Source: an uncultured Gammaproteobacteria bacterium (GTDB taxonomy: Bacteria; Pseudomonadota; Gammaproteobacteria; Steroidobacterales; Rariloculaceae). Taken from it: 64,000 nucleotides of DNA. The DNA lies in NCBI GenBank assembly GCA_964276105.1, contig CAXYEE010000026.1, positions 247 through 64,246 on the forward strand, written 5' to 3'. The notes below the pieces were generated by a model. It did no database searches. It saw only the letters and a program-made list of their open reading frames with translations, and was not told the DNA's origin. How positions within the stretch are numbered: position 1 is the first letter of the stretch; each line of letters opens with the position of its first letter. Below are positions 975 to 62,569 of this stretch, one piece after another. Position numbers and translations under genes: made by a program.

Positions 975-1988
975 GTGGGGTGGCCAAGAATGAAGATGGT
1001 TATTTTTTTTATTGCATTAATGGTTGTTCCAAGATGGTTAATCCATGCGCACCATAGTGAGGCAGGGTTTGATAAAGACACGGTGATCGCTTTTGAGGCA
1101 AAAGTAATTAAGTATGACTGGCGAAATCCTCATGTATATTTTTTGGTTGAAACCGCTGGTATTAGTGAGGATCCTATTGAGTGGAATATAGAGACTAGTT
1201 CAACCCCGATACTTAGCCGTGGCGGATGGACTCAGGATTCTCTAAAACCCGGAGATAAGGTAATTATTCGGGGTCATCCTGAACGTAATTCATCTCGTAA
1301 CTATGCGATTCTGCTAACTCTTGAAAAGGAGGATGGATTGATTCTTTCAGCCGCATCTCCAGATCCTAAGGGTATTACTAGCGCATCTAATTTATCAGGG
1401 GTATGGAAGGGATCTGGTGGTCAAGCGGATGGGGAGTTTCGACAACGTTTGAGTAGTCCTACGCTGACAGAAAAAGGAGCTATTGCAAGGAGTACTTACA
1501 ATTTTTATACCGATAGTCCAGTCGCTCAATGTATTGCGCATACGTCGCCATGGTTAATAACAACGGGCCTATATTTAAATGAAATAAACCTTCAGGATGA
1601 TATTGTTATTATGCGCAGTGAGTTTTTTGATGTAGAAAGAAAGGTTTTTATGGATGGACGTGGGCATCCGGTTGATGGTGAACGTACTCAGCAGGGACAT
1701 TCAATTGGGTGGTGGGAAAATGAGACACTAGTTGTGGATAGTAGTCTTTTCTCTGACCATAGGACTGGCAATGGTCCCGGGATACCATCAGGAGCTCATA
1801 AGCATGTTGTTGAGAGATACACTCTGAGTGAGGATCGTAGGCGTATCACCTTAGAGATCCTTTTAGAAGATGAGGAGTATCTAGCTGAGCCGCTAAGTGG
1901 CAGTATTGAGTGGATTTATGCCTCTGAATTGCAGCTTTATAGCTATAACTGTGCCCAGGATGTTTCAAGAGCGTTTAGGCAGGATTAG
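975..1988 (+). CDS. Exported fusion protein: N-terminal His-His small-protein domain (DUF6152-like) fused to a C-terminal domain of the GxSxGxW[ED]G family; function unknown
   Basis: 337-aa ORF; the more likely start is the ATG at 990 (MKMVIFFIALMVVPRWLIHA|HHSEAGF, a signal-peptide-like N-terminus). Residues ~25-125 align with the small proteins at 9662, 58756 and 62102 (HHS..F......V..Y.WRNPHVYF...W.IE......GW......GDKV.I.G). The C-terminal half carries CIAHTSPW, RKVFMDGRGHP, GHSIGWWENETLVV, VVERYT and YNCAQD, which are shared with the ORFs at 8693, 10072, 56173 and 56994. Confidence 0.8.
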   Translation: MGWPRMKMVIFFIALMVVPRWLIHAHHSEAGFDKDTVIAFEAKVIKYDWRNPHVYFLVETAGISEDPIEWNIETSSTPILSRGGWTQDSLKPGDKVIIRGHPERNSSRNYAILLTLEKEDGLILSAASPDPKGITSASNLSGVWKGSGGQADGEFRQRLSSPTLTEKGAIARSTYNFYTDSPVAQCIAHTSPWLITTGLYLNEINLQDDIVIMRSEFFDVERKVFMDGRGHPVDGERTQQGHSIGWWENETLVVDSSLFSDHRTGNGPGIPSGAHKHVVERYTLSEDRRRITLEILLEDEEYLAEPLSGSIEWIYASELQLYSYNCAQDVSRAFRQD

Positions 1989-2012: not shown

Positions 2013-4190
2013 ATGAGATTTTTTTCTATAGGAATAGTTATCGTAATAGCCGGTATTTTATTTGTTAGGAACAGTGCCGCTCAAATTGATTCTGATGTGG
2101 TCACAATTGATACAGACGATATTGGTGGATTGGTTGTTAGTAAATCTGGTGCTGAAGCTGGTGTATGGGTGATTGCGGAGACTAGGGATTTGCCAACAGG
2201 TTTTCGTAAGATTGTTGTGACAGATGAATCAGGCTACTACTTGATACCAGACCTGCCCTTAGCCAGTTATGACATTTGGGTGCGTGGTTATGGGCTGATC
2301 GATTCTCCAAAGTTAGAAGCAGCGCCTGGTGAAATTATTAATTTGACAGCAGTTGAAGCACCTACTCCTCAAGAGGCAGCTCAATACTATCCATCAAGTT
2401 ATTGGTATTCACTTATTGAGATTCCACCTAAAAGTGATTTTCCTGGAACAGGTCCTAATGGCAATGGAATAGCGACTGGTCTGTTAAGCCAGCTTCACTG
2501 GATTGGTCAGATGAAAGCAGGTGCAGTTGGGGGAGGGTGCTCGGTTTGTCACCAGTTAGGTAATAAAGCTACCCGTGAGATCCCACAAGAACTAGGCGCT
2601 TTTGATTCGACAGTAGATGCTTGGGACAGGCGCGTGCAATCAGGGCAGGCTGGTGCGAGCATGACAGCCGCTATGTCGAGATTTGGTCGTCGCCGCGCAT
2701 TAGAAATGTACGCAGATTGGACCGATCGAATTGTAGAAGGTGAAATTCCATCTGAGCCCCCTAGACCACAGGGTATCGAGCGCAACCTTGTAGTTACACA
2801 GTGGGATTGGGCTGATCCGGTTGGCTTTGTGCACGATACAGTCTCTACCGACAAACGGAATCCAATGCTCAATGCTAATGGTCTTGTCTATGGGGTGCAG
2901 GAGTTCAGTACACCGGATCTAAATATCCTGGATCCTGTGAAGAATAGTTTGACTCGAATTACTGCTCCTGTCCGTGATGAAAATACACCCTTTATGAATC
3001 CGCAGTTTGTATTTCAGCCCTCGGCTCATAATGGGGATGAGATAGTATGGTCTGGGAAAGCCAGTTTGCATAACCCAATGATGGATCACATGGGGAGAGT
3101 GTGGCTTACCCACACGATTCGTGCACCTGAGACCCCTGATTTTTGTCGTGAAGGCTCTAATCATCCGTCAGCAAAACTTTTTCCTGTAGAACGAAGTAAT
3201 CGACATCTTTCTGTTTATGATCCAGCAACAGAGGGTTTTTCATTGATTGATACCTGTTTTGGGACGCACCATCTACAGATAGCAGAAGATGAAGACAACA
3301 CGGTTTGGGCAAGTAATCCTGGTAGCCCAGTATTGGGCTGGTTAAATATGCGATTGTTTGATGAAACTGGTGATGAGCAACAGGCACAGGGCTGGTGTCC
3401 TTATATACTAGATACTAATGGGAATGGTCAGCAGGACGTGTATGTTGAGCCAAATGAGCCAATCGACCCAACTCAGGACAAACGTATAGATGGAGGCAGT
3501 TACGGAATTATTCCAAGCCCTGTTGATGGGTCGATTTGGGTAGCGCAGGGTTATGACGTACCAGGTGCCATAATAAGACTGAGTCCTGGAGCTAATCCTC
3601 CAAACACATGTCTTGCAGAGGTCTATGAGCCTCCCTTTAATAATCCAGCATCCACTATTAGTGGTTTTACTCCGAGGGGGATCGATATTGACCGTGAAGG
3701 AGTTATATGGACTGCCTTAGCTGGTAGTGGGCACTTTGCAAGTTTTGATCGCCGTAAGTGCTCAGTGCTTAATGGGCCAACAGCTACAGGGCAGCACTGT
3801 GCAGAAGGATGGACGCTGCATGAGACACCAGGACCTCACTTTAAGGACGTTGCCTATTCGGGTAGTGCTGATATGTTGTACTACAACTGGGTAGACCAAT
3901 TCGATACATTAGGTCTTGGTAAAGATGTGCCAATTGCGACGGGAACTGGGTCTGATTCACTATTGGTGCTACAACCCGATGGAGAGTTTCTTGTATTGCG
4001 TGTGCCTTACCCTATGGGATTTTCTACACGTGGTGTTGATGGCCGGATTGATGATCCAAATACTGGATGGAAAGGCAGAGGGCTTTGGGCAAACTACGCT
4101 ATTCATGCACCTTGGCATACTGAGGGTGGTGAAGGTGTAACCAGTAAAGCTGTTAAGTTTCAGTTGCGACCAGATCCGCTTGCGAGATAA
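2013..4190 (+). CDS. Exported protein with carboxypeptidase-regulatory-like N-domain, one CxxCH haem-c binding motif and a beta-propeller-like (Vgb/SMP-30-like) C-terminal region
   Basis: The track ORF starts at TTG 2007; ATG 2013 lies 8 nt after AGGAAG. N-terminal hydrophobic signal (MRFFSIGIVIVIAGILFVRNSAAQ). GVWVIAETRDLPTGFRKIVVTDESGYYLIPDLPLASYDIWVRGYG resembles CarboxypepD_reg. CSVCH is encoded at 2538-2552. Repeated GSIWVAQ / GVIWTAL / NTVWASN strand motifs suggest a propeller. It starts about 20 nt after the preceding gene's stop. Confidence 0.7.
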   Translation: MRFFSIGIVIVIAGILFVRNSAAQIDSDVVTIDTDDIGGLVVSKSGAEAGVWVIAETRDLPTGFRKIVVTDESGYYLIPDLPLASYDIWVRGYGLIDSPKLEAAPGEIINLTAVEAPTPQEAAQYYPSSYWYSLIEIPPKSDFPGTGPNGNGIATGLLSQLHWIGQMKAGAVGGGCSVCHQLGNKATREIPQELGAFDSTVDAWDRRVQSGQAGASMTAAMSRFGRRRALEMYADWTDRIVEGEIPSEPPRPQGIERNLVVTQWDWADPVGFVHDTVSTDKRNPMLNANGLVYGVQEFSTPDLNILDPVKNSLTRITAPVRDENTPFMNPQFVFQPSAHNGDEIVWSGKASLHNPMMDHMGRVWLTHTIRAPETPDFCREGSNHPSAKLFPVERSNRHLSVYDPATEGFSLIDTCFGTHHLQIAEDEDNTVWASNPGSPVLGWLNMRLFDETGDEQQAQGWCPYILDTNGNGQQDVYVEPNEPIDPTQDKRIDGGSYGIIPSPVDGSIWVAQGYDVPGAIIRLSPGANPPNTCLAEVYEPPFNNPASTISGFTPRGIDIDREGVIWTALAGSGHFASFDRRKCSVLNGPTATGQHCAEGWTLHETPGPHFKDVAYSGSADMLYYNWVDQFDTLGLGKDVPIATGTGSDSLLVLQPDGEFLVLRVPYPMGFSTRGVDGRIDDPNTGWKGRGLWANYAIHAPWHTEGGEGVTSKAVKFQLRPDPLAR

Positions 4191-4213: not shown

Positions 4214-5230
4214 CTAGTCTGGTAACTTAATCATCAGTTTGCCAAAGTTGTCGCCGCTAAAAAGTCGTAGCAGTGTTGATGGAAAAATATCAACTTGACC
4301 TTCGGTAATGTCTTCTAGTCCAGTGAATTTTCCAGCGCTCCGCCATTCGGCAAGGTCTTTTAACATACTTGGCCATTCCGCACGGAAATCAAAATAAATA
4401 AATCCCTCCATGCGAGCACGTCGACGTAATAACAATAGATAGTTACTTGGTCCTTCGATTGCTTTAGTGAGATTATATTGAGAAATTGCTCCACAAATAA
4501 TTATTCGGGCTCCGATATTAATAACGCTGAGCCCAGCATCCAATGTGGCACCTCCCACATTATCAAAAAATATATCTATCCCATCAGGACAATATTGTTT
4601 TATGTCCTCTAAAAGGTTGCCTTTTTTATAATCAATAGCCGCATCAAATCCTAGTTCATCGATAAGGTAATCACATTTTTTATTGCCACCTGCTATTCCA
4701 ATAACCTTATTTCCCTTGATCTTGGCTATTTGACCAACATGAGCACCAACAGAGCCGGCAGCACCAGAAACGAGAATAGTGTCATCGGTCTGAAGTTTAC
4801 CAACCTTTATTAATCCGCAATATGCGGTTAGTCCAGCAATGCCGAGTGTTCCTAGATATGTTTGTGGAGGGGCTATAGATAGATCGGCTTTGATGTAATC
4901 CAAACCATCAGAGACGGCATAATTTTGAACGCCATCAAGCCCCGAGACCCAATCTCCAATCTGAAATGAGTCATTTTTTGATTCTATAATTTCACCAACT
5001 GTGAGGGCTCGCATTACAGAACCAAGCCCAACTGGTGGAACATAGGACGGGCTATCATTTAGCCATCCCCGCATTGCAGGATCAATTGAAATGTATTTAA
5101 TTTTAGTTAGTACCTGGCCTTGAGCAATCCTTGGAATAGTTCCGTCAATGATGGTCCAATCACTGTCTTTGGGAAGTCCTTTTGGACGGTTTGCTAAACA
5201 TACCTGACGATTGATTATGCTTTTTTTCAT
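4214..5230 (-). CDS. NADP-dependent oxidoreductase, medium-chain dehydrogenase/reductase family (YncB/CurA, alkenal/enone reductase-like)
   Basis: 338 aa. The nucleotide-binding motif VSGAAGSVGAHVGQIAKIKG and the overall pattern (PKGLPKDSDW...YISIDPAMRGW...GKLMIKL) are typical of this MDR subfamily. Confidence 0.85.
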   Translation of the reverse strand: MKKSIINRQVCLANRPKGLPKDSDWTIIDGTIPRIAQGQVLTKIKYISIDPAMRGWLNDSPSYVPPVGLGSVMRALTVGEIIESKNDSFQIGDWVSGLDGVQNYAVSDGLDYIKADLSIAPPQTYLGTLGIAGLTAYCGLIKVGKLQTDDTILVSGAAGSVGAHVGQIAKIKGNKVIGIAGGNKKCDYLIDELGFDAAIDYKKGNLLEDIKQYCPDGIDIFFDNVGGATLDAGLSVINIGARIIICGAISQYNLTKAIEGPSNYLLLLRRRARMEGFIYFDFRAEWPSMLKDLAEWRSAGKFTGLEDITEGQVDIFPSTLLRLFSGDNFGKLMIKLPD

Positions 5231-5334: not shown

Positions 5335-6717
5335 TCATTGAACTACTCTAACTCGAAAGTTCCGAGCTTTAATCTTACCTTCAACGAGTTTTTTCATGGC
5401 AAGTTTAACTGCCTCACGCCTTACGGCTACAAAAGTTTGATCATTAAAAATATTGATTTTTCCAACCTGAGACCCATTTACTCCATGTTTTCCTGTTAAT
5501 GCTCCTAGGACATCCCCAGGCCGAATTTTTTGGCGTTTTCCACCGGATATTAAAAGAGTAATCATTGTTGCTTTAGGGGGAGGGGATTTTGGTGCTAGCA
5601 GGTTACTAAGAGGTTCATCTGTAATGACTTTATCGAGTGACTCTTGTAGTAATTTCAGTTTATAGGCATCTTTTTCTCTGAATAGTGTAATCGCTACGCC
5701 CGTTTTTCCAGCACGTCCAGTACGCCCGATACGGTGTAAATGTATGTCGGAAGAAGTGGCGATATGAAAGTTAATGACTGCGTCTAAAGAATCAATATCT
5801 ATACCTCGGGCTGCCACATCGGTAGCAACTAGAATTTGAATGCTTCTATTGGAAAACTGGACAAGAGTTTGTGTGCGGTTACGTTGATCGAAGTCACCAT
5901 GTAATGCGAGGGCGCTGAATCCAGTAGTTATTAGTTTATCGGCAACCCGCTGTGTTTCTATTTTTGTATTACAGAATATTAGGATTGATTCGAATCCTTT
6001 CTGCAGAAGTAACGAACGCAGTATGTCTACTTCGTTATCATCATTAACTTTATAAAAACTCTGCTTAATAGTAATGCTGTCATGAGTTGACTCAACATGA
6101 ATTTTTATCGGGTCATTCATGACTCGTTTAACAATAGACTGTATATTTCTTGGGAAAGTAGCGCTGAAGAGTAGTGTTTGCCGTTGTTTTGGAATTTGCT
6201 CAATTATTACATCGAGAGTTTCCTGAAATCCCATATCCATCATGCGATCAGCCTCATCTAAGACGATTATTTTTAGAGTCTTTAGCCGTAATGTGCCTTT
6301 TCTTAAATGATCCTCAACGCGACCGGGTGTCCCGATAATAATATGGACACCATTAGCTATAGATGCAGCCTGTGGTCCAAATGGCAAACCACCACATAAC
6401 GTTAATACTTTTACATTTGGAATTGCACGAGCGAGCCTACGTAGTTCATTAGCAACTTGATCCGCAAGCTCCCGTGTGGGACAAAGCACTAGTGATTGTA
6501 CGTGAAAAATATTTACATCAAGTTTTGTAAGAAGACCAAGACCGAAGGCTGCTGTTTTTCCTGAGCCCGTTTTTCCCTGCGCAATAATGTCGCTATCGGA
6601 AAGGATGTGCGGCAGACTCTTTGCCTGAATGGGGGTCATATGCTCATAACCTAGGGATGGTAGATTACGAAGTAATCTGGCATCCAAAGTAAGTGATGAG
6701 AATGCTATGTTATTCAA
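5335..6717 (-). CDS. dbpA: ATP-dependent RNA helicase DbpA (DEAD-box)
   Basis: 460 aa with AQGKTGSGKT (motif I), PTRELA, VLDEADRMMDMGF (DEAD), SAT and HRIGRTGRAG. The C-terminal DbpA RNA-binding domain is present (GGKRQKIRPGDVLGALTG...FVAV). Confidence 0.9.
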   Translation of the reverse strand: MNNIAFSSLTLDARLLRNLPSLGYEHMTPIQAKSLPHILSDSDIIAQGKTGSGKTAAFGLGLLTKLDVNIFHVQSLVLCPTRELADQVANELRRLARAIPNVKVLTLCGGLPFGPQAASIANGVHIIIGTPGRVEDHLRKGTLRLKTLKIIVLDEADRMMDMGFQETLDVIIEQIPKQRQTLLFSATFPRNIQSIVKRVMNDPIKIHVESTHDSITIKQSFYKVNDDNEVDILRSLLLQKGFESILIFCNTKIETQRVADKLITTGFSALALHGDFDQRNRTQTLVQFSNRSIQILVATDVAARGIDIDSLDAVINFHIATSSDIHLHRIGRTGRAGKTGVAITLFREKDAYKLKLLQESLDKVITDEPLSNLLAPKSPPPKATMITLLISGGKRQKIRPGDVLGALTGKHGVNGSQVGKINIFNDQTFVAVRREAVKLAMKKLVEGKIKARNFRVRVVQ

Positions 6718-8692: not shown

Positions 8693-9652
8693 TCACTCAG
8701 AAATAGATTGGTCATCCATGTCGGTGAAATCAAAATCAAGAAATGTTGTTCCGCCATCTTCCGTTTCTATAACAATATTATTTTGACTCTGGCAGTTCCA
8801 CCAGTACTCTAAACGTAGAGGCGAACCTTCTTCCTGATGCATCTGATTATAGGTCTGTCGTGTGTACCATGGAGTTTCAAGTGCTTCAGTGTCATAAAGC
8901 CAGACATCGGCCTGAATTTTACCATCATCAGTTTTTTGCCAAATCTCAATGCTTTCTAAGGCGGTACTTAAATAAGGTAATAGCCTGCCGATCCAGCCTC
9001 CGTTCGTATACATCGTGTGTGTGATAAGTGTGTGACCATCCCAAAACCCGATTGAGTCGCCATGCTCGGTCTCGTAGGCCCAGTCCTCTGGCGTATGGCC
9101 TCGACCATCTGTATAGATCCGGCGTACTTCGTTTCGAGCCTGACCTAAATGCCAGGTCTGATGTGGCGTGACCGCAAACTCATGAGGCCGTCCATTTTTA
9201 AGCATTCCTGGATAACCCCGGGCTTGACCGCAACCTGCATGGGGGTCCCAAATCCGCCCTTGTTGAGCGTTCGCTAGTATCTCATTGTGCCTCGCGGCAT
9301 ACTCACCTTTAAGGGCGGCGGTGGTTTTAACACCAACTCGATCCCTATCGTATCTAAAGGGAGTGCCTTCTCGTTCCCATAACCCACTCCAGTCAGGAAC
9401 TTCATCAAGAGATAAGGTTGTATCCTCTGACTCGGCTTCAAGCGCTTTATAAAACTCCCATGCTGACTCGTACTGCAGGCCTATTTCGATCATTCGTTGT
9501 TTTGTTTGCGGCCAAAATTGATCGTCGACACTTTCACTATCGTAACTGTCTTCTAAAAAGTTTCCCTGAGCAAATGCTAGTGAGGACATAAATGCAAAAG
9601 TCAGAACCTTGAACATCTGATACAGGATGGTTTTAATCAATGTAATATTCAA
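8693..9652 (-). CDS. Exported protein of the GxSxGxW[ED]G domain family (paralogue A-prime); function unknown
   Basis: 319-aa ORF starting at TTG 9652; an alternative ATG at 9616 gives MFKVLTFAFMSSLAFA|QG, a signal-peptide-like N-terminus. Contains HAGCGQARGYPG, RRIYTDGRGHTPEDW, GDSIGFWDGHTLIT and WWNCQSQ. It is near-identical at the DNA level to 10072-10998 over about 800 nt. Confidence 0.8.
   Translation of the reverse strand: MNITLIKTILYQMFKVLTFAFMSSLAFAQGNFLEDSYDSESVDDQFWPQTKQRMIEIGLQYESAWEFYKALEAESEDTTLSLDEVPDWSGLWEREGTPFRYDRDRVGVKTTAALKGEYAARHNEILANAQQGRIWDPHAGCGQARGYPGMLKNGRPHEFAVTPHQTWHLGQARNEVRRIYTDGRGHTPEDWAYETEHGDSIGFWDGHTLITHTMYTNGGWIGRLLPYLSTALESIEIWQKTDDGKIQADVWLYDTEALETPWYTRQTYNQMHQEEGSPLRLEYWWNCQSQNNIVIETEDGGTTFLDFDFTDMDDQSISE
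8708..9507. repeat. Copy 1 of a ~800-bp direct (tandem, gene-spaced) duplication
   Basis: Direct comparison with 10087-10889. Positions 8708-8978 are base-for-base identical to 10087-10357 (271 nt). Further identical blocks are interrupted by short divergent patches around 8979-8991 and 9275-9365, with a 3-nt length difference. Confidence 0.95.
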
Positions 9653-9661
9653 TCTATGAGG

Positions 9662-10066
9662 TTAGTCTCTACCGGGTGTTCTCCAGTTGAGCAGCGTGCC
9701 GTCTTCTTTGGTGATAGTTTGCCACATGGCTGCTGGACGTCCATCACGCATAGGATTTCCTGTAATAGTTATTTTTGCTCCTGGGGGAAGATCGCCTTTT
9801 CGCACACCACCATGCATCATGTCTTGTGGTCCTTCACCTTCAAATCCCCATGTAGTGATGGTTCCATCATTATTTTCAATGTCTACAATTAACCAGGAAT
9901 GGGGATTAATATATCGGAATTCTTTAACTGTACCAATCAATGTAATGATTTCATCTCTATTAAACATTTCTGCAGAGTGGTGTGCAGAAATTGGAGCTGA
10001 AATACAAACAAATCCAATCAATGTGTAAAGAAGGAGCTGTAAGTTTTTTAAGCATATTTTTTTCAT
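9662..10066 (-). CDS. Small exported His-His protein (DUF6152-like); function unknown
   Basis: The track ORF starts at GTG 10075, overlapping the upstream stop as GTGA. The ATG at 10066 lies 8 nt after GGAG and gives MKKICLKNLQLLLYTLIGFVCISAPISA|HHSAEMFNRDEIITLIGTVKEFRYINPHSWLIVDIENNDG. A signal peptide with an AxA-type site would leave His-His at the mature N-terminus. Confidence 0.85.
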   Translation of the reverse strand: MKKICLKNLQLLLYTLIGFVCISAPISAHHSAEMFNRDEIITLIGTVKEFRYINPHSWLIVDIENNDGTITTWGFEGEGPQDMMHGGVRKGDLPPGAKITITGNPMRDGRPAAMWQTITKEDGTLLNWRTPGRD

Positions 10067-10071
10067 AAGGA

Positions 10072-10998
10072 TCACTCCACGACTTGTTGGTCATCCATGT
10101 CGGTGAAATCAAAATCAAGAAATGTTGTTCCGCCATCTTCCGTTTCTATAACAATATTATTTTGACTCTGGCAGTTCCACCAGTACTCTAAACGTAGAGG
10201 CGAACCTTCTTCCTGATGCATCTGATTATAGGTCTGTCGTGTGTACCATGGAGTTTCAAGTGCTTCAGTGTCATAAAGCCAGACATCGGCCTGAATTTTA
10301 CCATCATCAGTTTTTTGCCAAATCTCAATGCTTTCTAAGGCGGTACTTAAATAAGGTTGCAGCCTTCCGGTCCAGCCTCCGTTCGTATACATCGTGTGTG
10401 TGATAAGTGTGTGACCATCCCAAAACCCGATTGAGTCGCCATGCTCGGTCTCATAAGCCCAGTCCTCTGGCGTATGGCCTCGACCATCTGTATAGATCCG
10501 GCGTACTTCGTTTCGAGCCTGACCTAAATGCCAGGTCTGATGTGGCGTGACCGCAAACTCATGAGGCCGTCCATTTTTAAGCATTCCTGGATAACCCCGG
10601 GCTTGACCGCAACCTGCATGGGGGTCCCAAATCCGCCCTTGTTGAGCGTTCGCAAGTATTTCATTAAACATCTCGGCATACTCGCCTTTAAGGGCGGCGG
10701 TGGTTTGTCGACCAACTTGATCCGTATCGAACCATCGGGGGACGGGACCTTCTCGTTCCCATAACCCACTCCAGTCAGGAACTTCATCAAGAGATAAGGT
10801 TGTATCCTCTGACTCGGCTTCAAGCGCTTTATAAAACTCCCATGCTGACTCGTACTGCAGGCCTATTTCGATCATTCGTTTTTTTGTTTCTAGCCAACTC
10901 TCCGGATAGGCGTTTTTCTGAGAGAAAACAAGCGGAGGTATAAGGGAGCAAGTAAAAATTATTATTGAGCAGTAGGTTTTTAGAGAAAGATTGGTCAT
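10072..10998 (-). CDS. Exported protein of the GxSxGxW[ED]G domain family (paralogue A); function unknown
   Basis: 308 aa with a hydrophobic N-terminal signal (YCSIIIFTCSLIPPLVFSQ). It carries the same conserved blocks as 8693-9652. Its stop lies within 10 nt of the start of the small His-His gene, or overlaps it. Confidence 0.85.
   Translation of the reverse strand: MTNLSLKTYCSIIIFTCSLIPPLVFSQKNAYPESWLETKKRMIEIGLQYESAWEFYKALEAESEDTTLSLDEVPDWSGLWEREGPVPRWFDTDQVGRQTTAALKGEYAEMFNEILANAQQGRIWDPHAGCGQARGYPGMLKNGRPHEFAVTPHQTWHLGQARNEVRRIYTDGRGHTPEDWAYETEHGDSIGFWDGHTLITHTMYTNGGWTGRLQPYLSTALESIEIWQKTDDGKIQADVWLYDTEALETPWYTRQTYNQMHQEEGSPLRLEYWWNCQSQNNIVIETEDGGTTFLDFDFTDMDDQQVVE
10087..10889. repeat. 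Copy 2 of the ~800-bp direct duplication
   Basis: See copy 1. The offset is 1379 nt at the left end and 1382 nt at the right end. Confidence 0.95.
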
Positions 10999-16557: not shown

Positions 16558-16918
16558 TGGTGGAGGCGGCGGGAATTGAACCCGCGTCCGTCAAGTGCTC
16601 GCGGCCTTCGGCTCTACATGCTTATTCCGTCTTTAATCTTGCTGAAAGCTACCCGACGGGCAGGGAAAACTCACAGCCAGTCTAGTTAAGTTTTAGCGTT
16701 CAGGCCCTAGACAGTCCATTCCGCGATCTTGTGTGGATGACTCCTGGAACCGGTCGCACAAGCACGAGCCGGGCAGAAGGCTTTAGTCTGTTTTTTAAGC
16801 AGCTAGAGCGTAGTTGTCTTCGTTGGCAACTATATGGTTTGCAGTTGGTTTTACGAGGTGATCTGCTCCTCGGCATGCACCTAAAGATTCACGACCCACG
16901 TCGAAGCCGATCGCCCCC
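16558..16918 (-). ncRNA. ssrA: tmRNA (SsrA), tag peptide ANEDNYALAA
   Basis: On the reverse strand the 5' end reads GGGGGCGATCGGCTTCGACGTGGGTCGTG and the 3' end reads GCGGGTTCAATTCCCGCCGCCTCCACCA, a tRNA-Ala-like acceptor/T-arm. The tag reading frame is GCC AAC GAA GAC AAC TAC GCT CTA GCT GCT TAA at 16827-16795. smpB lies immediately upstream. Confidence 0.95.
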
Positions 16919-40035: not shown

Positions 40036-40120
40036 GCCGATGTGGTGGAACTGGTAGACACGCTGTCTTGAGGGGGCAGTGGCGAAAGCCGTGCCGGTTC
40101 GAGTCCGGCCATCGGCACCA
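40036..40120 (+). tRNA. leuU: tRNA-Leu (anticodon GAG)
   Basis: GCCGATGTGGTGGAACTGGTAGACACGCTGTCTTGAGGGGGCAGTGGCGAAAGCCGTGCCGGTTCGAGTCCGGCCATCGGCACCA. It has a 7-bp acceptor stem, a long variable arm, the anticodon loop TTGAGGG and an encoded CCA. Confidence 0.93.
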
Positions 40121-54668: not shown

Positions 54669-54745
<77 letters not shown>

Positions 54746-56172: not shown

Positions 56173-56985
56173 GTGCTAAAGATCAGGCTGAGAAGCTCAG
56201 TATCAACATTCCTGTTGCTTGTTTTAATGAGTAATGTTGTAAAAGGACAGTCTTCTGAGACTGAGTTTCCTAGGGGTTGGGATGGCAAGCCTAATTTAAA
56301 TGGAATTTGGCAGGCAATTGGTACGGCACACTGGGATATTCAGGATCATCCTGCAAGTGCTGGATTACCTGAGTTTGGAGCAATCGGTGCAATCCCCCCA
56401 GGCCAAGGTGTGGTGGATGGGAATGAGATTCCCTATCAACCTTGGGCCTTAGAGCAGAAACAAAAAAACTTTGATGACCGTTTTACGATGGACCCGGAAA
56501 TCAAATGTTATTTGCCAGGAGTTCCTCGAGCAACCTACTTGCCTTATCCTTTTCAGATAATTCAAGGCACTGATAAGACCATGATTGTTTATGGCTTTGC
56601 AGAAGCCAGTCGTACAATCCATATGAATGTAGAAAACCCAAAACCTGCACCAATTGATAGTTGGATGGGGCGTTCCCATGGGAAATGGGAAGGGGATTCC
56701 TTTGTGGTCAATGTGGCAGAGTTTAATGGACAGTCATGGTTTGATCGAGCCGGTAATTTTGCTAGTGAAACACTTCGTGTGGAAGAGCGATATACACCTC
56801 TTGGTCCAAATGCTCTTATGTACCAGGCTACTATTGAAGACCCAAATGTTTTTACTGAATCTTGGACTATTAGCATGCCACTCTATCGTAGGCTAGAGGA
56901 TCTAGTGCAAGTTTTAGAATTTAAGTGTGTCGAGTATTCAGAAAGTATTTTATACGATCACCTTAGACGGCAGCCCGTAGAGTAA
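56173..56985 (+). CDS. Exported stand-alone GxSxGxW[ED]G-domain protein; function unknown
   Basis: 270 aa with a GTG start after GGGGAG and a signal-like N-terminus (KIRLRSSVSTFLLLVLMSNVVKG|QS). The family blocks are LNGIWQ, KCYLPGVPR, SRTIHMN, GRSHGKWEGDSFVV, VEERYT and FKCVEY. Confidence 0.8.
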   Translation: MLKIRLRSSVSTFLLLVLMSNVVKGQSSETEFPRGWDGKPNLNGIWQAIGTAHWDIQDHPASAGLPEFGAIGAIPPGQGVVDGNEIPYQPWALEQKQKNFDDRFTMDPEIKCYLPGVPRATYLPYPFQIIQGTDKTMIVYGFAEASRTIHMNVENPKPAPIDSWMGRSHGKWEGDSFVVNVAEFNGQSWFDRAGNFASETLRVEERYTPLGPNALMYQATIEDPNVFTESWTISMPLYRRLEDLVQVLEFKCVEYSESILYDHLRRQPVE

Positions 56986-56993
56986 ACATACAG

Positions 56994-58745
56994 TTGCAGA
57001 GGTATTACAAGTTGCAAAGAAAAAACTTTGTTTTTACAACCCTTATGCTAGGGATAATAACGTTGATGCCATACCCAATACTGGGTGCAAATTATCATCA
57101 TGTACATATTCTTGCTCCTAGCCCGCTCGAAGCAGTGAAATGGTATACAGATTATCTGGACTGTGATTCGATTGTAAATCGTATAGATGCAGTTAGTTGT
57201 GATGATATTGAAATTGTCTTTATTGCACGAGCTACCTTAGGAGGTACTCAGGGTACTGGCGTTAATCACATAGCATTTTCAGTCCCTAACCTTGAAAATA
57301 AAATGACTGAACTTGAAAGAGTGGGAGTGTATGGATCAGGTGTTAGGCTGCATAGATTTTCGGATGGTTCAATATTCCAAGATATTCCTGGTTTATATAA
57401 GTCTGGCTTTATTTTTGATCCATGGGGGACTCGGATCGAGCTTGTAGAGGATGCAGACCTTTTAGGATTTCACCATGTTCATTTGAGTTCACCAAACCCT
57501 GAAGAAACATTACTTTGGTATCAGGAAGTTTTTGATGGTGAATTAGCAAGATTGAAGGGGGAGATAGATGGTGTTTTGTTGGGTGATATCTGGGTTCTAG
57601 TGTCCGAGCATTTATCTGGTAGTCCAGCACCAACGCAAGGACGTACTCTTGAAAATTTAGGGTTTGTTGTGCCAGATCTTAATGTAGCGATATCTGGTTT
57701 TCAGGAAAAAGGGCTAGGTGTTCAGCTTGATTCTTTAGGTGAGGGCGGAAGGCCGCAACGCGCTTTTTTGCTTGGGCCTGATAATGTAAATATTTCAGTC
57801 GTTGAATCAGGTTGGGTTAGTGTAAGCGCACAGCAAAAAGTCGATAGGCCTTTAGCAATAGAGCTTCAAGAGCGTTACAGCACATCTTCTACTCCTTGGG
57901 GTGAGCCTGATCTTCAAGGAATTTGGACAAGTGATGCAGCTCATGGGATTCCTTTAGAGAGACCTCTTAATGCTGTACAAACAGTTCCGCTAACACCTGA
58001 AGAAGCGGCTGCCCGTCGCGAAAGAGGAACGCTTAATAGCATTTGGGGGTATGAAAGAGAGTGGCGTGATACTACGTTAGGGTATGCAAAAAACGCTCCC
58101 TCTACCCAAGTGTCATTGATAATTGACCCATCTGATGGTCGACTCCCACCCATGACCCCTTATGGTGAGTCGCTTGTTGCAGCAGCAGAGCTTGCAGCAA
58201 ATCAGCAAAGGTTACCCGCAGGGCCAGAAGATTTAAGTACAGATGATCGTTGTATTACGCGCGGGCTTCCGGGACTGATGTTGCCTAGGGTATATAACAA
58301 TGGATTACAAATTGTCCAAGGCCCAGGTTATGTCGCAATACAAAAGGAAATGGTTCATGAGACGCGTGTAATTCCAACCACAGAAAAACCACATCTTGGG
58401 TCTTCTCTAACCCAATGGCTTGGAGATTCCCGAGGATATTGGGATGGAGAAACACTGGTGGTAGAGGCGCTAAATTTTAATGGTCGGTCACCATTCAGGG
58501 GCGCTGGTAAAGATATGAGGTTAACTGAACGTTATACACGTATTGGACCAACTACGATTGAATATATGTTTACCGTAGTCGATAGCACGATATGGACTAG
58601 TCCTTGGACTGGAATTTTTCATTTTGAAAAAGATGATGATCAGTATGAGCTTGTCGAATATGCATGCCATGAGGGAAATTATGGCCTCACAGGTATATTA
58701 AGTGGTGCTCGTGCTACGGAAAGGGAATCTGCCGCTAATCAGTAA
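56994..58745 (+). CDS. Exported fusion: two VOC (glyoxalase/bleomycin-resistance/dioxygenase-like) domains + C-terminal GxSxGxW[ED]G domain
   Basis: 583 aa; the start is TTG 56994 or ATG 57045. The N-terminal half has two repeats of the VOC pattern (YHHVHILAPSPLEAVKWYTDYL...GVNHIAFSVP...FDPWGTRIELVE and FHHVHLSSPNPEETLLWYQEVF...LENLGFVVPDL). The C-terminal half carries LQGIWTS, DRCITRGLPG, ETRVIPT, GDSRGYWDGETLVV, LTERYT and YACHEGN. Confidence 0.8.
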   Translation: MQRYYKLQRKNFVFTTLMLGIITLMPYPILGANYHHVHILAPSPLEAVKWYTDYLDCDSIVNRIDAVSCDDIEIVFIARATLGGTQGTGVNHIAFSVPNLENKMTELERVGVYGSGVRLHRFSDGSIFQDIPGLYKSGFIFDPWGTRIELVEDADLLGFHHVHLSSPNPEETLLWYQEVFDGELARLKGEIDGVLLGDIWVLVSEHLSGSPAPTQGRTLENLGFVVPDLNVAISGFQEKGLGVQLDSLGEGGRPQRAFLLGPDNVNISVVESGWVSVSAQQKVDRPLAIELQERYSTSSTPWGEPDLQGIWTSDAAHGIPLERPLNAVQTVPLTPEEAAARRERGTLNSIWGYEREWRDTTLGYAKNAPSTQVSLIIDPSDGRLPPMTPYGESLVAAAELAANQQRLPAGPEDLSTDDRCITRGLPGLMLPRVYNNGLQIVQGPGYVAIQKEMVHETRVIPTTEKPHLGSSLTQWLGDSRGYWDGETLVVEALNFNGRSPFRGAGKDMRLTERYTRIGPTTIEYMFTVVDSTIWTSPWTGIFHFEKDDDQYELVEYACHEGNYGLTGILSGARATERESAANQ

Positions 58746-58755
58746 GGTGTTGCTA

Positions 58756-59172
58756 ATGCGTATACCATCGCTAGTATTTTTTATAATAAGTATTTGTCTG
58801 TTACAGCAGTCAGGAGTATCGCTTGCTCATCATGCGTTTTCTGCAGAGTTTGACCAAACAAAACCTGTCACTCTTCGTGGCACGGTTACTAGGATGGAAT
58901 GGATAAATCCTCATTCTTGGCTGCATATCGACGTTATTCAAGAAGACGGTAGTGTAGAAAACTGGATGATAGAGGCAGGACCCGCGGGGGTTCTTGTTCG
59001 CCGAGGATGGACAAGAGAGTCGGTAGCGATTGGTACTGACGTTTTAGTTGAGGGTTATCAGGCCAGGGATGGCTCAAATCGTGCAAATGGTAGGGATGTC
59101 ACATTGCCAGATGGACAGCGCCTATTTGCAGGTTCGGGAGGGATAGGCGCTGCACCACAGGTAGAAGAATAA
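58756..59172 (+). CDS. Small exported His-His protein (DUF6152-like); function unknown
   Basis: The track ORF starts at GTG 58702, inside the upstream gene. ATG 58756 lies 10 nt after that gene's stop and gives MRIPSLVFFIISICLLQQSGVSLA|HHAFSAEFDQTKPVTLRGTVTRMEWINPHSWLHIDV...GWTRESVAIGTDVLVEG. Confidence 0.85.
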   Translation: MRIPSLVFFIISICLLQQSGVSLAHHAFSAEFDQTKPVTLRGTVTRMEWINPHSWLHIDVIQEDGSVENWMIEAGPAGVLVRRGWTRESVAIGTDVLVEGYQARDGSNRANGRDVTLPDGQRLFAGSGGIGAAPQVEE

Positions 59173-59389
59173 TAGTAAGTGTGAGGAGAAAGTTGCAGGC
59201 CGCAAAAGTTTTTGGAATAAGTTTTTTGTTCTATAAGATGTGTTGAGTTTCTTATTCACTACGTAACTATAAATTACTAGCATTGCGAGAATTAATGGTT
59301 AGCTTTGTTAGGAAAAAATTTGTTGTCTTCTACAACCCTTGTTTGAAGGGTAAGATGATCAGTATTACCGCTAATTTGTGGAGGACTCA

Positions 59390-60643
59390 ATGTATAAAAT
59401 AAAAATTGATTTACATAGCTTGAGAAAAGGATTAAAGGCAATAATGTTGCTCGTAGTTTTTTTTATTGCAGCTTGCAGTCAAGGCACTGGAGATGTTGAT
59501 GTTACTGTCTATCAAGGAGCACGATTAATTATTGGGGATGGCTCAGTAATAGAAAATGGTGCTTTTGCTGTTAATGATGGCCAGGTTGTGGCTGTTGGAA
59601 CCACTGCTAGTATCTCTATAGATGGTGCTATGACAGTAGATCTAAGCGGCATGACTGTAATCCCGGCAATTGTTGATGCTCATGTTCATATGAGTAACAC
59701 CCGAGAGGAAATTCTTGATGATCTTCGTCGGCGAGCACATTTTGGTGTGGGAGCTGCTATGAGTATGGGCTCTGATCCTGAAGGTGTTCCATTAGAACTA
59801 CGAGATGAGATTGTGCCTGGACATGCGCGGTTTAAGTCAGCAGGACTTGGTATTACTAGACCCGAACCAGGCAGAAGAATGGTTCATTGGGTTGATACAC
59901 CTGCTCAAGCACGTGAAGCGGTGCAGACAGAGGCGTCTCGTAATGTTGATGTAATAAAGGTTTGGGTTGATGATCGGGATGGTCTTTATGATCAATTGAC
60001 GCCGGAGCTATATGGTGCAGTTATTGATGAAGCACATCAGCATGATATTCAGGTTTCTGCACACCTTTTTGAGCTGGAAGATGCTAAAGGACTGTTACGG
60101 GCTGGTGTTGATATTCTTGCACATGGAGTGCGTGATCGAGACATTGATGTCGAATTTATCTCTCTTGTAAATGAACGTCCAAACCTTGTGTTAATACCAA
60201 ATCTTCCAGGTCGTGGTATTAGTTCTGATTACAGTTGGTTAGAGGGTTCTATTCCGGACGAAGATTTTCAACGACTACAAAATATGGATGCAAGCTCCCA
60301 GGCACAATCAGCGCATGCTATACAAGCTAGAAACCTTTCTAGGTTAAGCCAAGAAGGTATGACTATAGGAATGGGGACAGATGGTAATACTCCATGGGGG
60401 GCACATATTGAGATGGAGGATATGGTTCTTGCAGGCATGTCTCCTGGTGATGTCATTGTGTCTTCAACCAAAAATTCTGCTGAGATTCTAGGATTAGACG
60501 ATATGGGTATTCTTGAAGAAGGTTATAGTGCTGACTTTGTCGTTTTAAGTGCTAACCCGTTGGATGACATTAAAAACACAAGGCAAATCTCATCGGTTTA
60601 TCTACGTGGTGTGGAGGTAAATCGCGAGGGGTTTGTATGGTAA
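59390..60643 (+). CDS. Amidohydrolase family protein with lipoprotein-type signal
   Basis: ATG 59390 follows GGAGGA. Lipobox FFIAAC. The metal-binding motif is VIPAIVDAHVHMS, with later SAHLFE, ILAHGV and GMGTDGN, and a C-terminal GYSADFVVLSANPLDD. Confidence 0.85.
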   Translation: MYKIKIDLHSLRKGLKAIMLLVVFFIAACSQGTGDVDVTVYQGARLIIGDGSVIENGAFAVNDGQVVAVGTTASISIDGAMTVDLSGMTVIPAIVDAHVHMSNTREEILDDLRRRAHFGVGAAMSMGSDPEGVPLELRDEIVPGHARFKSAGLGITRPEPGRRMVHWVDTPAQAREAVQTEASRNVDVIKVWVDDRDGLYDQLTPELYGAVIDEAHQHDIQVSAHLFELEDAKGLLRAGVDILAHGVRDRDIDVEFISLVNERPNLVLIPNLPGRGISSDYSWLEGSIPDEDFQRLQNMDASSQAQSAHAIQARNLSRLSQEGMTIGMGTDGNTPWGAHIEMEDMVLAGMSPGDVIVSSTKNSAEILGLDDMGILEEGYSADFVVLSANPLDDIKNTRQISSVYLRGVEVNREGFVW

Positions 60644-60751
60644 GAGGGTTTTTTCTTAGAGATGAGAGTTTTAAGAGAATTCTTTCATGTCATTAATTTA
60701 TAGAGCTATCCAATTATTTAAATGAACATGACTGTTGGGAAGTGAGGCAAA

Positions 60752-62038
60752 ATGATGAATGAACATAGTCAGAAACGTTGGGTTTCTAGAGCAGGTTTCT
60801 TGGTTTTCTGTGTATTAGGAATCTATTATCAGAATGTTCAAGGACAGACTGAGCCAGGCTCTGGGTTTGCTGCAGTGCCAGGATTAAGGGGCGGGCAAGA
60901 TGTTCATGGTCCCTATGAGGTGGTGCCAAACTGGCCAAAGCCGATGTCAGAAAGTCTTCCAGGTCACGAAGGCTGGACTTGGTCCGTTACCATGGATGTT
61001 TTTGCTGAGAGTCCAGATCGTGTATTCCTAGTTCAAAAAGGTGAGCTAGCTCTTATTGAGGAAAGACCTGATTCGGTCTGGTTACCAGAGCTTGGTGCTG
61101 GTTTGCGCTACCCCAATTTTCGTTTACCACTCCGTCAAGCTGGGGCAGGTATTCCAAATGGAGATCGGTTGGATGAGCCGGGTAATGGCCGGCCGGGAAT
61201 TGATTGGCGTTGGGAGCACTGCGTTCTAGTAATTGATCGTGAAGGAAATATTGTTGAGGAATGGAGTCAGTGGGACCACCTATGGTATCGGCCTCATGAT
61301 GTTGAGATTAGTCCGTATGATCCAGATAAACATGTTTGGATCGTTGATGCCGATGGTCATTTTGTTGCTAAGTTTACAAATGACGGTTCAGAGTTGGTTA
61401 TGACATTGGGTACGCCGGGGGAGCCAGGAGAGTCTGACAATCATTTTAGACGTCCTACATTTCTGGTTTTTATGGATGAGAACACCATGTACCTTGCCGA
61501 TGGTTATGACAATACTCGGATCATTAAATACGATATGGATGGCAATATTTTAGCCCAATGGGGTGAGAAGGGACGAGGTCAAGGCCAAGAGACAAGGCCA
61601 GGTTATTGGAATAATGTTCATGGTATTGCTGTTGACCCTACAACACGGCGAGTTTATGTGAATGACCGTGATAATGGACGTGTCCAGGTATTTGATGAAG
61701 ATGGTAATTATTTGGATGAATGGCAGTTTTGGTCAGGTAGGCGAGGACAGCCTCAGGATATACATAGCTTTATTGTTACAAGTGATCAAAAACTATGGGC
61801 AGCAGATCAGGGTACCCACAAGATTTTAGGGTACGATCTTGATGGTTATTTTCTTTACTCATGGGGTAGTTGGGGAGAGTATCCCGGAGGTATGTGGGGT
61901 GTTCATGGGATGTCAACTGATAACGAAGGTAACTTTTACACTGCCTCTGTTAATAACGGACGTATTCAAAAGTTTCGCCCTCGAGAAGGGGCTAATCCTG
62001 AATTTTTGATTGGTAAGCCATGGCCAGGCGCTTGGTAA
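60752..62038 (+). CDS. Exported NHL-repeat beta-propeller protein (peptidyl-alpha-hydroxyglycine lyase-like fold)
   Basis: 428 aa with a signal-like N-terminus (WVSRAGFLVFCVLGIYYQNVQG|QT). Repeated NHL-type blades: MYLADGYDNTRIIKYDMDGNIL, VYVNDRDNGRVQVFDEDGNYL, LWAADQGTHKILGYDLDGYFL and FYTASVNNGRIQKF. Confidence 0.75.
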   Translation: MMNEHSQKRWVSRAGFLVFCVLGIYYQNVQGQTEPGSGFAAVPGLRGGQDVHGPYEVVPNWPKPMSESLPGHEGWTWSVTMDVFAESPDRVFLVQKGELALIEERPDSVWLPELGAGLRYPNFRLPLRQAGAGIPNGDRLDEPGNGRPGIDWRWEHCVLVIDREGNIVEEWSQWDHLWYRPHDVEISPYDPDKHVWIVDADGHFVAKFTNDGSELVMTLGTPGEPGESDNHFRRPTFLVFMDENTMYLADGYDNTRIIKYDMDGNILAQWGEKGRGQGQETRPGYWNNVHGIAVDPTTRRVYVNDRDNGRVQVFDEDGNYLDEWQFWSGRRGQPQDIHSFIVTSDQKLWAADQGTHKILGYDLDGYFLYSWGSWGEYPGGMWGVHGMSTDNEGNFYTASVNNGRIQKFRPREGANPEFLIGKPWPGAW

Positions 62039-62101
62039 GTAAACAGTAGGCATATAATTTGGTCTAATCCAAGCTGTCTTTATGGTAATTGTTTGGAAGT
62101 A

Positions 62102-62545: not shown

Positions 62546-62569
62546 GTTATATGATATAGCGTGCACCTA

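Follow-up and report, generated by a model that had tools for sequence, protein, structure and literature searches.

What kind of protein is encoded by an exported gene product that joins a single haem-attachment motif to a beta-propeller, and does the gene directly upstream belong to the same system? Both questions are raised by the gene at positions 2013 to 4190 of a 64,000-nucleotide stretch of DNA from an uncultured Gammaproteobacteria bacterium (contig CAXYEE010000026.1), the whole of which is referred to here as the window. An earlier note, made from the letters of the window, had described the product as an exported protein with a CarboxypepD_reg-like segment, one c-type haem motif and a propeller of the Vgb lyase or SMP-30 type, and had placed it with the upstream gene in a putative periplasmic redox system. 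According to our analysis, we give an even chance to the reading that the product is a periplasmic haemoprotein oxidoreductase, in which the propeller carries out the catalysis and a haem c relays the electrons. The elements of the gene that bear on this reading are the following.

2013 to 4190, + strand: exported protein of 725 amino acids, with a CarboxypepD_reg domain, a cytochrome c domain and then a seven-bladed propeller
2013 to 2081, + strand: Sec-type signal peptide, residues 1 to 23, read from the sequence, with predicted cleavage after SAA
2121 to 2321, + strand: CarboxypepD_reg-like beta-sandwich, residues 37 to 103 (Pfam, family profile, AlphaFold predicted local distance difference test [pLDDT] score of about 95)
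2355 to 2762, + strand: helical haem domain, residues about 115 to 250, a divergent class-I cytochrome c (model helices 119 to 241; weak Pfam matches)
2538 to 2552, + strand: CSVCH haem-attachment motif, residues 176 to 180, with C176, C179 and H180 (alignment conservation)
2661 to 2663, + strand: Met217, proposed sixth (distal) haem ligand (Met in 230 of 234 homologues)
2787 to 4166, + strand: seven-bladed beta-propeller, residues 259 to 718 (Foldseek match to Vgb lyase; residue conservation)
3411 to 3437, + strand: DTNGNGQQD loop, residues 467 to 475, resembling a Ca2+ loop (conserved DxNxNGxxD pattern)

The open reading frame starts with the ATG at 2013 and ends with the stop codon at 4188 to 4190, giving 725 amino acids; an in-frame TTG at 2007 represents an alternative start, with a product of 727 amino acids, and a homologue that is 95% identical (P0001) is likewise 725 amino acids long, as is the product of the ATG. 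In the N-terminal sequence, MRFFSIGIVIVIAGILFVRNSAA followed after the cleavage site by QIDSD, we could recognize the n-, h- and c-regions typical of a Sec signal, and residues 1 to 28 have a pLDDT below 50 in the AlphaFold model. Furthermore, in an alignment of 234 full-length homologous sequences reaching down to 36% identity, three pairs of cysteines co-vary: C378 and C415 are both present in 222 sequences and C583 and C596 in 226, and the lineage-specific pair C462/C533 is complete in 33 sequences, missing in 198 and mixed in 3. Together with the signal peptide, such co-varying pairs fit disulphides formed in an oxidising compartment, which is also needed for the attachment of a c-type haem; the periplasmic export that belongs to a class-I c-type cytochrome is thus indicated by both the signal and the covariation. 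In approximately 11% of the homologues a lipobox-like signal takes the place of the ordinary one, and we propose that the protein reaches the periplasm through the Sec route and is lipid anchored in some of its relatives. The reading frame, the signal-like N terminus and the short gap of about 20 nucleotides upstream of it that the earlier note had described are all present, the gap measuring 24 nucleotides, and every element which that note had listed was found in its place.

Exactly one C..CH motif occurs in the 725 residues, about 0.002 being expected from the Cys and His content of the protein itself, and exactly one CxxCH is present in 143 of 150 full-length family proteins. Most of the seven exceptions (four) look frame-shifted, one has an unrelated N terminus and one carries a CX3CH variant; clear losses of the motif are found only in P0127 and P0135, which belong to two paralogous clusters. 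In the alignment, 227 sequences have C176, 230 have C179 and 231 have H180. The single c-type haem motif of the earlier note is thus confirmed as CSVCH at nucleotides 2538 to 2552, and its conservation in orthologues, on which that note had let the claim stand or fall, amounts to about 97 to 99% of the 234 sequences. Met217 lies 37 residues past His180 and is, besides His180, the sole near-invariant Met or His of the helical domain; it is followed by helices, modelled at residues 200 to 241. It is lost in the haem-less P0135 and retained in the haem-less P0127, and two of the three sequences that lack His180 lack Met217 as well. Met217 is probably the distal ligand of the haem, which would then have His/Met ligation.

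Moreover, the comparison of excised haem domains with Pfam gave weak matches to Cytochrome_CBB3 (PF13442) in 9 of 30 domains and to Cytochrom_C (PF00034) in 5 of 30, with best E (expectation) values of 0.002 to 0.003, and the profile of the haem domain aligns with the cytochrome c-552 of Nitrosomonas (3zox) over a stretch that begins at the CxxCH and ends in the C-terminal ADW helix, with an E value of 1.6. We consider the region a real, divergent class-I cytochrome c domain for which haem attachment is predicted from its sequence, the haem being presumably bound in a covalent manner.

The AlphaFold2 model of the protein, built on 44 homologues, has a mean pLDDT of 81 and a predicted template-modelling (pTM) score of 0.85. 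It places a beta-sandwich at residues 37 to 103, a helical domain containing the CxxCH at 119 to 241 and approximately 29 strands between residues 259 and 718, a number that fits seven blades. The pLDDT falls below 50 at residues 171 to 188, in correspondence to the haem site, where a low value is expected because the model contains no haem, and in a few loops, among which is the highly conserved stretch 700 to 706 (PWHTEGG); this low-confidence yet conserved loop surrounds H702 and E704. As for the N-terminal sandwich, residues 37 to 94 match Pfam CarboxypepD_reg (PF13620) with an E value of 0.0043 and 17.8 bits, below the cut-off of 32.3, and all of 23 diverse relatives match the same Pfam family, the best of them with an E value of 2e-8. 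A profile search of the PDB connects the family profile of this immunoglobulin-like (Ig-like) domain with the B-repeat structures of SdrD. The CarboxypepD_reg assignment therefore holds at the family level, the query itself being sub-threshold, and the CarboxypepD_reg-like segment proposed in the earlier note is borne out by the 23 relatives and by the confident sandwich of the model.

With regard to the propeller, the best Foldseek matches in the PDB are the streptogramin/virginiamycin B (Vgb) lyase structures 2qc5, 2z2o and 2z2p (E values of 5e-9 to 5e-7), with target-normalised TM scores of 0.76 to 0.80 (0.78 for the best) and approximately 10% sequence identity, so that the seven-bladed fold of the Vgb lyase family is recognized at the structural level. 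Further matches are to six- and seven-bladed proteins, namely, Ycf48, pyrroloquinoline quinone (PQQ) glucose dehydrogenases (1c9u and 3a9g) and the lactonases Drp35 (2dg0) and RPA3624 (8djf). The sequence repeats an [IVL]W strand motif, which is found at residues 345, 363, 431, 508, 565 and 691. The query has no match to the Vgb lyase profiles (PF24684; NCBIfam VgbA/VgbB) and stays below their thresholds; among the 23 relatives, Pfam gave weak matches to Vgb_lyase in two (2.8e-5) and to SGL in two, and NCBIfam gave weak matches to VgbA/VgbB in one (6.5e-4) and nothing else for the family. The propeller of the Vgb or SMP-30 type that the earlier note had proposed from repeated motifs agrees with these results, given the seven blades, the best fold match to virginiamycin B lyase and the recurrence of [IVL]W.

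A set of propeller residues, H274, D275, H353, H420, Y497, R555, H574, Y623, R678, H702 and E704, is 93 to 99% conserved across phyla. Most of H274/D275, H353, H420, Y497, R555, Y623, R678, H702 and E704 start innermost strands, and we propose that they form the active site. In particular, the register of the blade motif assigns H274, H353, H420, Y497, R555 and Y623 to the variable position (x) of the P-x-G-I-T motif in Vgb-type blades, a position that in propellers generally lines the central cavity of the top face and that in Vgb is the seat of catalytic residues. In the one blade that hhalign aligned, Y497 falls on the Tyr of GPYGIT, a weak match with a probability of 14%. With a single blade aligned, the six residues assigned by register would make up a constellation different from the catalytic His/Glu Mg2+ site of Staphylococcus aureus Vgb (His228, Glu268, His270 and Glu284). 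Asymmetric and composed of chemically different residues, the conserved ring resembles an active or metal-binding site. In addition, the DTNGNGQQD insert between blades looks like a Ca2+-binding loop, as judged from its sequence: in the 234 homologues, D467 is kept in 232, N469 in 216 and D475 in 207, position 471 is N or D in 227, and one family member has a weak match to EF-hand_5.

Searches for relatives indicated a very large family. A word-index search gave at least 8000 matches, and an exhaustive search of cluster representatives gave 5903 matches at an E value of 0.001 or lower, 1197 of them at 1e-30 or lower; approximately 1200 clusters at 50% identity belong to the family (E below 1e-30), and two peptide patterns of the family match the genomes of more than 588 species. 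The members are spread over Acidobacteriota, Gemmatimonadota, Bacteroidota and Gammaproteobacteria, phyla abundant in soil and sea, and their hosts are mostly aerobic heterotrophs. In existing annotation they appear only as "carboxypeptidase regulatory-like domain-containing" or hypothetical proteins, and in the literature searched (including searches for COG4257, for streptogramin lyase with cytochrome and for seven-bladed propeller with c-type cytochrome) we found no paper on this combination of propeller and cytochrome. Likewise, Foldseek against the PDB gave no solved structure with the full architecture: the query-normalised TM score never exceeds 0.35, which implies that no solved structure shares the whole arrangement. 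Nor did searching the PDB by sequence and by profile bring up a relative with the full architecture, the matches being a weak one to the motif of a reaction-centre cytochrome c-554 (E 0.027), the SdrD B-repeats and one Vgb blade, and the scan of the query against Pfam and NCBIfam returned no whole-protein family, only the sub-threshold CarboxypepD_reg. The sequence is thus not new, since it is already in databases among the hypothetical proteins, and the architecture made of CarboxypepD_reg, class-I cytochrome c and Vgb-type propeller is uncharacterised, in agreement with the earlier note, which did not recognise a characterised enzyme.

It is possible to hypothesize a mechanism on this basis. 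One covalent c-type haem, with His180 and Met217 as ligands, would sit between the Ig-like (CarboxypepD_reg) domain and the Vgb-type propeller, and the substrate would enter the middle of the top face of the latter and react there. His274/Asp275, His353, His420, Tyr497, Arg555 and Tyr623, coming from successive blades, would meet at this place, where they probably bind a metal. Single electrons would then be relayed by the haem c between the propeller centre and the respiratory chain, a cytochrome c or another soluble partner in the periplasm, and the general mode of working would be that of quinohaemoprotein dehydrogenases and cd1 nitrite reductase. The analysis shows the order of the domains, the conservation of the haem motif and of the residues at the blade centres, the extracytoplasmic location and the size of the family, whereas the attachment of the haem, the Met ligation, the redox function, the metal of the propeller, the substrate and the direction of the electron flow are what we infer. 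Support for the oxidoreductase reading comes from the conservation of CxxCH and Met217, the weak class-I matches, the export, the model, the propeller fold with PQQ glucose dehydrogenases and lactonases among its matches, the residues at the centres of the blades, and the purifying selection and the periplasmic redox neighbours of some loci (L134, L168 and L086) described below. If it is true, aerobic heterotrophs would have a widespread and so far unstudied route leading electrons from periplasmic substrates to the respiratory chain, and the propellers of the Vgb/SMP-30 type, so far known as hydrolases and lyases, would be extended to redox chemistry.

Several results weigh against this reading. 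No class-I cytochrome c profile is matched above its curated threshold, the query being without a match and the 30 excised domains matching weakly. The convergence of the conserved propeller residues at the centre would follow from the blade topology, and in the propeller we identified no cofactor or metal signature. In order to describe the gene surroundings, we considered 81 loci centred on family genes, from Acidobacteriota, Gemmatimonadota, Bacteroidota, Phycisphaerae, Binatia and one metagenome-assembled genome of Gammaproteobacteria, and among these loci there is no conserved redox partner. The nearest structural relatives (Vgb, Drp35 and lactonases) are non-redox, metal-dependent lyases or hydrolases. 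Finally, the haem-less P0127 and P0135 keep H274, H420 and Y623 (P0135 also Y497), the helical domain and most of the propeller residues. Since the propeller core is kept in these proteins without the CxxCH, the function of the propeller can survive the loss of the haem, and the propeller may act without it, be it as a hydrolase or lyase or as a module for binding.

These results lead to a different explanation, which we judge rather unlikely, according to which the propeller works as a lyase, lactonase or esterase that depends on a metal and performs no redox chemistry, in the manner of Vgb, Drp35 or SMP-30, and the haem domain is structural, regulatory (in redox or gas sensing) or vestigial and lies outside the electron path of catalysis. 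The two haem-less proteins represent its main evidence, and it is also favoured by Vgb lyase as the best fold match, by the lactonases Drp35 and RPA3624 among the other structural matches, and by the weak Vgb_lyase and SGL matches in two members each. The gene neighbours are of a kind that this explanation would welcome: a PETase-like alpha/beta-hydrolase and an EamA transporter adjoin the gene in three loci (L002, L090 and L096), and Lactamase_B proteins, GDSL lipases and amidohydrolases are frequent nearby. However, CxxCH and Met217 are present in about 97 to 99% of the members over several phyla, which is hard to explain if the haem is vestigial, and a class-I domain with His/Met ligation is typically an electron carrier and not a sensor. 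Moreover, the identity to Vgb is approximately 10%, and the Glu/His Mg2+ site of Vgb could not be mapped onto the protein.

The absence of a conserved enzymatic partner in the 81 loci and of a recognisable cofactor motif would also suit a protein that is no enzyme at all, that is, an electron carrier or adhesin of the periplasm or cell surface, whose propeller and Ig-like domain dock the cytochrome on a protein, a polymer or a mineral. NHL and other propellers, as well as Ig-like domains, often mediate binding, and the lipobox-like signal of approximately 11% of the homologues would anchor the protein to the membrane. Nonetheless, the His/Asp/Tyr/Arg ring is asymmetric, 93 to 99% conserved across phyla and situated on the canonical catalytic face, as expected of an active site and not of a surface for docking. 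Moreover, most hosts are heterotrophs that live aerobically, and no known gene sets for extracellular electron transfer lie near the gene; we give this explanation hardly any credence.

Concerning the second question, that of the upstream gene, three further features have to be introduced.

975 to 1988, + strand: partner gene, 337 amino acids, with a signal peptide, a DUF6152 oligonucleotide/oligosaccharide-binding (OB) fold and a lipocalin/FABP-like barrel, called domain X here (Pfam, AlphaFold, Foldseek)
1989 to 2012, + strand: intergenic spacer of 24 nucleotides with a ribosome-binding site (spacing of 24 to 28 nucleotides kept in L087, L088 and L093)
940 to 1851, no strand: segment of 912 nucleotides that the closest relatives have lost (BLASTN alignment of L082 with the window)

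The partner matches Pfam DUF6152 (PF19649) over residues 24 to 108 with an E value of 7.3e-21 and 74.5 bits against a cut-off of 27, and therefore belongs to that family. Its AlphaFold model has a pLDDT of 89, and Foldseek gave OB-folds for the N-terminal part and FABP/CRABP-like (CRABP2-like) barrels for the C-terminal part, the latter with an E value of about 3e-4 and a target-normalised TM score of approximately 0.6. The predicted mature N terminus, directly after the cleavage site of the signal peptide, is His-His-Ser; in 42 homologues, H26, H27, S28 and H53 are invariant and H101 is invariant or nearly so. The same Ala-His-His occurs at the predicted signal-peptidase site of all four DUF6152 copies of the window (975 to 1988 on the + strand, 9662 to 10075 on the - strand, and 58702 to 59172 and 62093 to 62545 on the + strand), which means that each mature protein would start with His-His. 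By analogy with histidine-brace proteins and with recently described proteins that bind Ni or Cu through an N-terminal His (PMC10952591, PMC12537917), it is plausible that the N-terminal His-His-Ser, with His53 and His101, makes up a putative metal site, and it is on these residues that the metal-binding character proposed in the earlier note would depend. DUF6152 does not appear in these papers on N-terminal-His metalloproteins (the "signal-strapping" of PMC12537917 included), and no paper on DUF6152 was found in the literature searched. The OB-fold and domain X halves are separate adjacent genes elsewhere, both in the window (10075 to 8693, - strand) and in L028 and L031, an arrangement which indicates that 975 to 1988 is a fusion of normally adjacent parts.

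The two genes are probably co-transcribed, as judged from the sequence between them. A ribosome-binding site, AAAGGAAG, lies at 1997 to 2004, before the ATG at 2013, and neither a terminator-like nor a sigma-70 promoter-like site is predicted on the + strand in or near the spacer; the pair is flanked by a divergent MmgE/PrpD gene (878 to 1, - strand) and by a convergent gene for an NADPH-dependent oxidoreductase (4214 to 5230, - strand). All-against-all clustering of the 81 loci identified no universal neighbour. DUF6152/domain X is the only recurrent informative neighbour, present in 12 of the 81 loci in varied orientation, and approximately 85% of the loci are without it; the other clusters consist of frame-shadow open reading frames inside the propeller gene and of a synteny block specific to Vicinamibacterales. 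This block, found upstream in seven loci (L020, L023, L033, L043, L044, L052 and L080), comprises a multihaem cytochrome of about 650 amino acids, a tetratricopeptide repeat (TPR) protein and an unannotated protein. In L028, L030, L031 and L037, the propeller gene is accompanied by paralogues in tandem. Periplasmic redox neighbours are two dihaem class-I cytochromes c in L134 (7076 to 9099), a glucose/sorbosone dehydrogenase (GSDH) in L168 and a PQQ dehydrogenase with a cytochrome c in L086. As a separate observation, a YncE-like propeller and a protein with two CxxCH motifs lie beside the propeller-family gene of L131 (4022 to 5910).

Seen from the partner, a propeller-family gene is at most 6 kb away in 11 of 85 loci. 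The same gene order with a gap of 24 to 28 nucleotides is found in L087, L088 and L093, where the fusion is 80% and the propeller protein 89% identical; the order is reversed in L090, with an overlap of 4 nucleotides, the propeller gene precedes the fusion gene in L168, with a gap of 40 nucleotides and identities of 51% and 43%, and the two genes are convergent in L134. In the gammaproteobacterial relatives L002 (1787 to 8287), L090 (576 to 6059) and L096 (2233 to 7881), the genes for the secreted PETase-like alpha/beta-hydrolase (about 390 to 424 amino acids) and the EamA transporter join the pair in rearranged orders. A tight coupling that persists in permuted orders argues for a functional link which is real but facultative.

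BLASTN of L082 against the window returned the blocks 689 to 939 and 1852 to 2111, which in L082 are joined at the microhomology ATCCTTT (5841 to 5851). L082, L083 and L084, coming from three different samples and sharing the same synteny and 95% protein identity, are all without 940 to 1851. We rejected a recent insertion of the upstream gene in the window, because the relatives retain an in-frame 3' remnant of 137 nucleotides, from which it follows that the difference is a deletion on their side. Owing to this deletion, the partner gene is without its start and most of its length, and the remnant and the ribosome-binding site are left in place; the region 879 to 939 comes to lie beside the propeller gene, which would agree with a single promoter, upstream of 975, for both genes in the window. 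In the relatives that bear the deletion, the propeller gene is intact and under strong purifying selection, the ratio of nonsynonymous to synonymous substitution rates (dN/dS) being 0.07 at a dS of 0.34. According to these sequence comparisons, the DUF6152 fusion gene accompanies the propeller gene as a facultative accessory, and the propeller gene does not depend on having it as a partner. Near-identical strains in which the partner gene is naturally deleted represent a ready-made genetic test of the relevance of the DUF6152 module.

Adjacency in this window must also be read against the multiplication of both modules, which occur in at least four DUF6152 and at least four domain X copies within 64 kb, beside unrelated enzymes. 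The copies outside the pair, with their neighbours, are listed here.

8693 to 9652, - strand: domain X, 319 amino acids, second module, separate gene
9662 to 10075, - strand: DUF6152, 137 amino acids (Pfam 2e-27), second module, separate gene
10072 to 10998, - strand: domain X, 308 amino acids, second DUF6152 module
56173 to 63589, + strand: third DUF6152- and domain X-rich cluster, with the genes that follow
56173 to 56985, + strand: domain X, then a 583-amino-acid protein of the glyoxalase/dioxygenase superfamily
58702 to 59172, + strand: DUF6152, then an amidohydrolase
60752 to 62038, + strand: NHL/SGL beta-propeller, 428 amino acids, without CxxCH, then DUF6152
62093 to 62545, + strand: DUF6152, directly 3' of the haem-less propeller, with a TctC-like binding protein next

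Since DUF6152 is multiplied in the genome, some adjacency is expected by chance, and adjacency alone was rejected as proof of a system. The two-gene system that the earlier note had suggested is thus supported only in part: the pair recurs in other genomes, even in other orders, but it is absent from approximately 85% of the loci, and the partner is deleted in the nearest relatives.

A reading that ties the function of the protein to its neighbour is that it is the redox partner of the DUF6152/lipocalin-like protein: the haem c would exchange electrons with the N-terminal His-His metal centre, oxidation of a co-substrate would fall to the propeller, and a hydrophobic substrate would find its place in the barrel. 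The short spacer with its ribosome-binding site and no predicted terminator, the pair as kept in L087, L088 and L093, found in other orders in L090 and L168 and with converging genes in L134 (11 of 85 partner loci in all), the sole recurrent neighbour cluster (12 of 81 loci), the invariant H26, H27, S28, H53 and H101 and the AHH of all four copies in the window are consistent with it. However, most loci of the family have no such partner, the closest relatives have lost it by deletion with the propeller gene still under purifying selection, and DUF6152 also stands beside the glyoxalase-like protein, the amidohydrolase and the haem-less NHL propeller; moreover, the metal binding of DUF6152 is hypothetical, no DUF6152 paper having been found in the literature searched. 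All in all, we find this reading distinctly unlikely. A more far-reaching proposal, to which we attach only a slight probability, would see here a new class of haem-c/metallo-propeller oxidoreductases, working in Gammaproteobacteria with an N-terminal-His DUF6152 metalloprotein fused to a lipocalin-like substrate holder. It would be a bacterial counterpart of the fungal relay from dehydrogenase-cytochromes to lytic polysaccharide monooxygenases (LPMOs); its substrates would be hydrophobic or of the ester type, and the co-located PETase-like hydrolase and EamA exporter would take part in the process.

The rest of the window contains the following RNA genes.

16558 to 16918, - strand: tmRNA gene (Rfam, 210 bits)
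40036 to 40117, + strand: tRNA gene
54669 to 54742, + strand: tRNA gene

From approximately 23.4 kb to the end of the window, all open reading frames of at least 150 amino acids are on the + strand and the GC skew is strongly positive, which looks like the ordinary organisation of a chromosomal leading strand.

Returning to the haemoprotein oxidoreductase reading, the known systems can be compared with the protein as follows. Vgb (2qc5, 2z2o; PF24684) is the best structural match and shares the seven-bladed propeller, the blade motif (...P-x-G-I...D-G-x-[IV]-W...) and, by a weak alignment, conserved polar residues at the blade position of its catalytic residues. Vgb differs from the query in being cytoplasmic and made of one domain, a Mg2+-dependent lyase of about 300 amino acids without haem, whereas the query protein is exported and features a propeller of about 460 amino acids with long blade insertions, putative disulphides and an insert resembling a Ca2+ loop, in addition to the Ig-like and cytochrome c domains.

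In the copper-containing seven-bladed propellers (the CuZ domain of N2O reductase, thiocyanate dehydrogenase and galactose oxidase), the His and Tyr ligands of the metal come from the innermost strands of successive blades, and electrons are exchanged with a separate cytochrome c or cupredoxin, in which we see a likeness to the mechanism proposed here. The query has no sequence or Pfam match to these proteins, none of them is among the best 50 Foldseek matches, and it differs from them in having only three or four conserved His, the metal site being putative. The cd1 nitrite reductase (NirS) presents the same order of an N-terminal class-I cytochrome c followed by a propeller with the catalytic centre, and its electrons enter via haem c; however, its propeller is eight-bladed and binds haem d1, as opposed to about seven blades in our model. 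Membership in this group was rejected, since neither the query nor the 23 relatives match Cytochrom_D1 (PF02239), and no nir genes lie near 2013 to 4190.

The quinohaemoprotein dehydrogenases, represented by type II PQQ alcohol dehydrogenase and by PQQ sugar and sorbosone dehydrogenases with a cytochrome c, resemble the protein, as it is proposed to work here, in joining a periplasmic propeller to a single His/Met class-I cytochrome c that relays electrons to a soluble acceptor. Their propellers have eight blades of the PQQ type or six of the GSDH type, whereas the query has seven of the Vgb type, a cytochrome N-terminal to the propeller and no identified PQQ-binding residues; membership among the PQQ enzymes was rejected for want of any PQQ, PQQ_2 or GSDH Pfam match in the query or the 23 relatives. 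Finally, cellobiose dehydrogenase and PQQ pyranose dehydrogenase (AA12 with an AA8 cytochrome) are fungal, use haem b (AA8) and carry a flavin or a six-bladed PQQ domain, and the partner of the query, with its OB-fold and lipocalin-like barrel, does not have the LPMO fold and is paired with the propeller gene in a facultative way. Nevertheless, in these fungal systems a dehydrogenase-cytochrome feeds a secreted metal protein with an N-terminal His, the LPMO, and it is this arrangement that offers an analogy for the pair formed by 975 to 1988 and 2013 to 4190.

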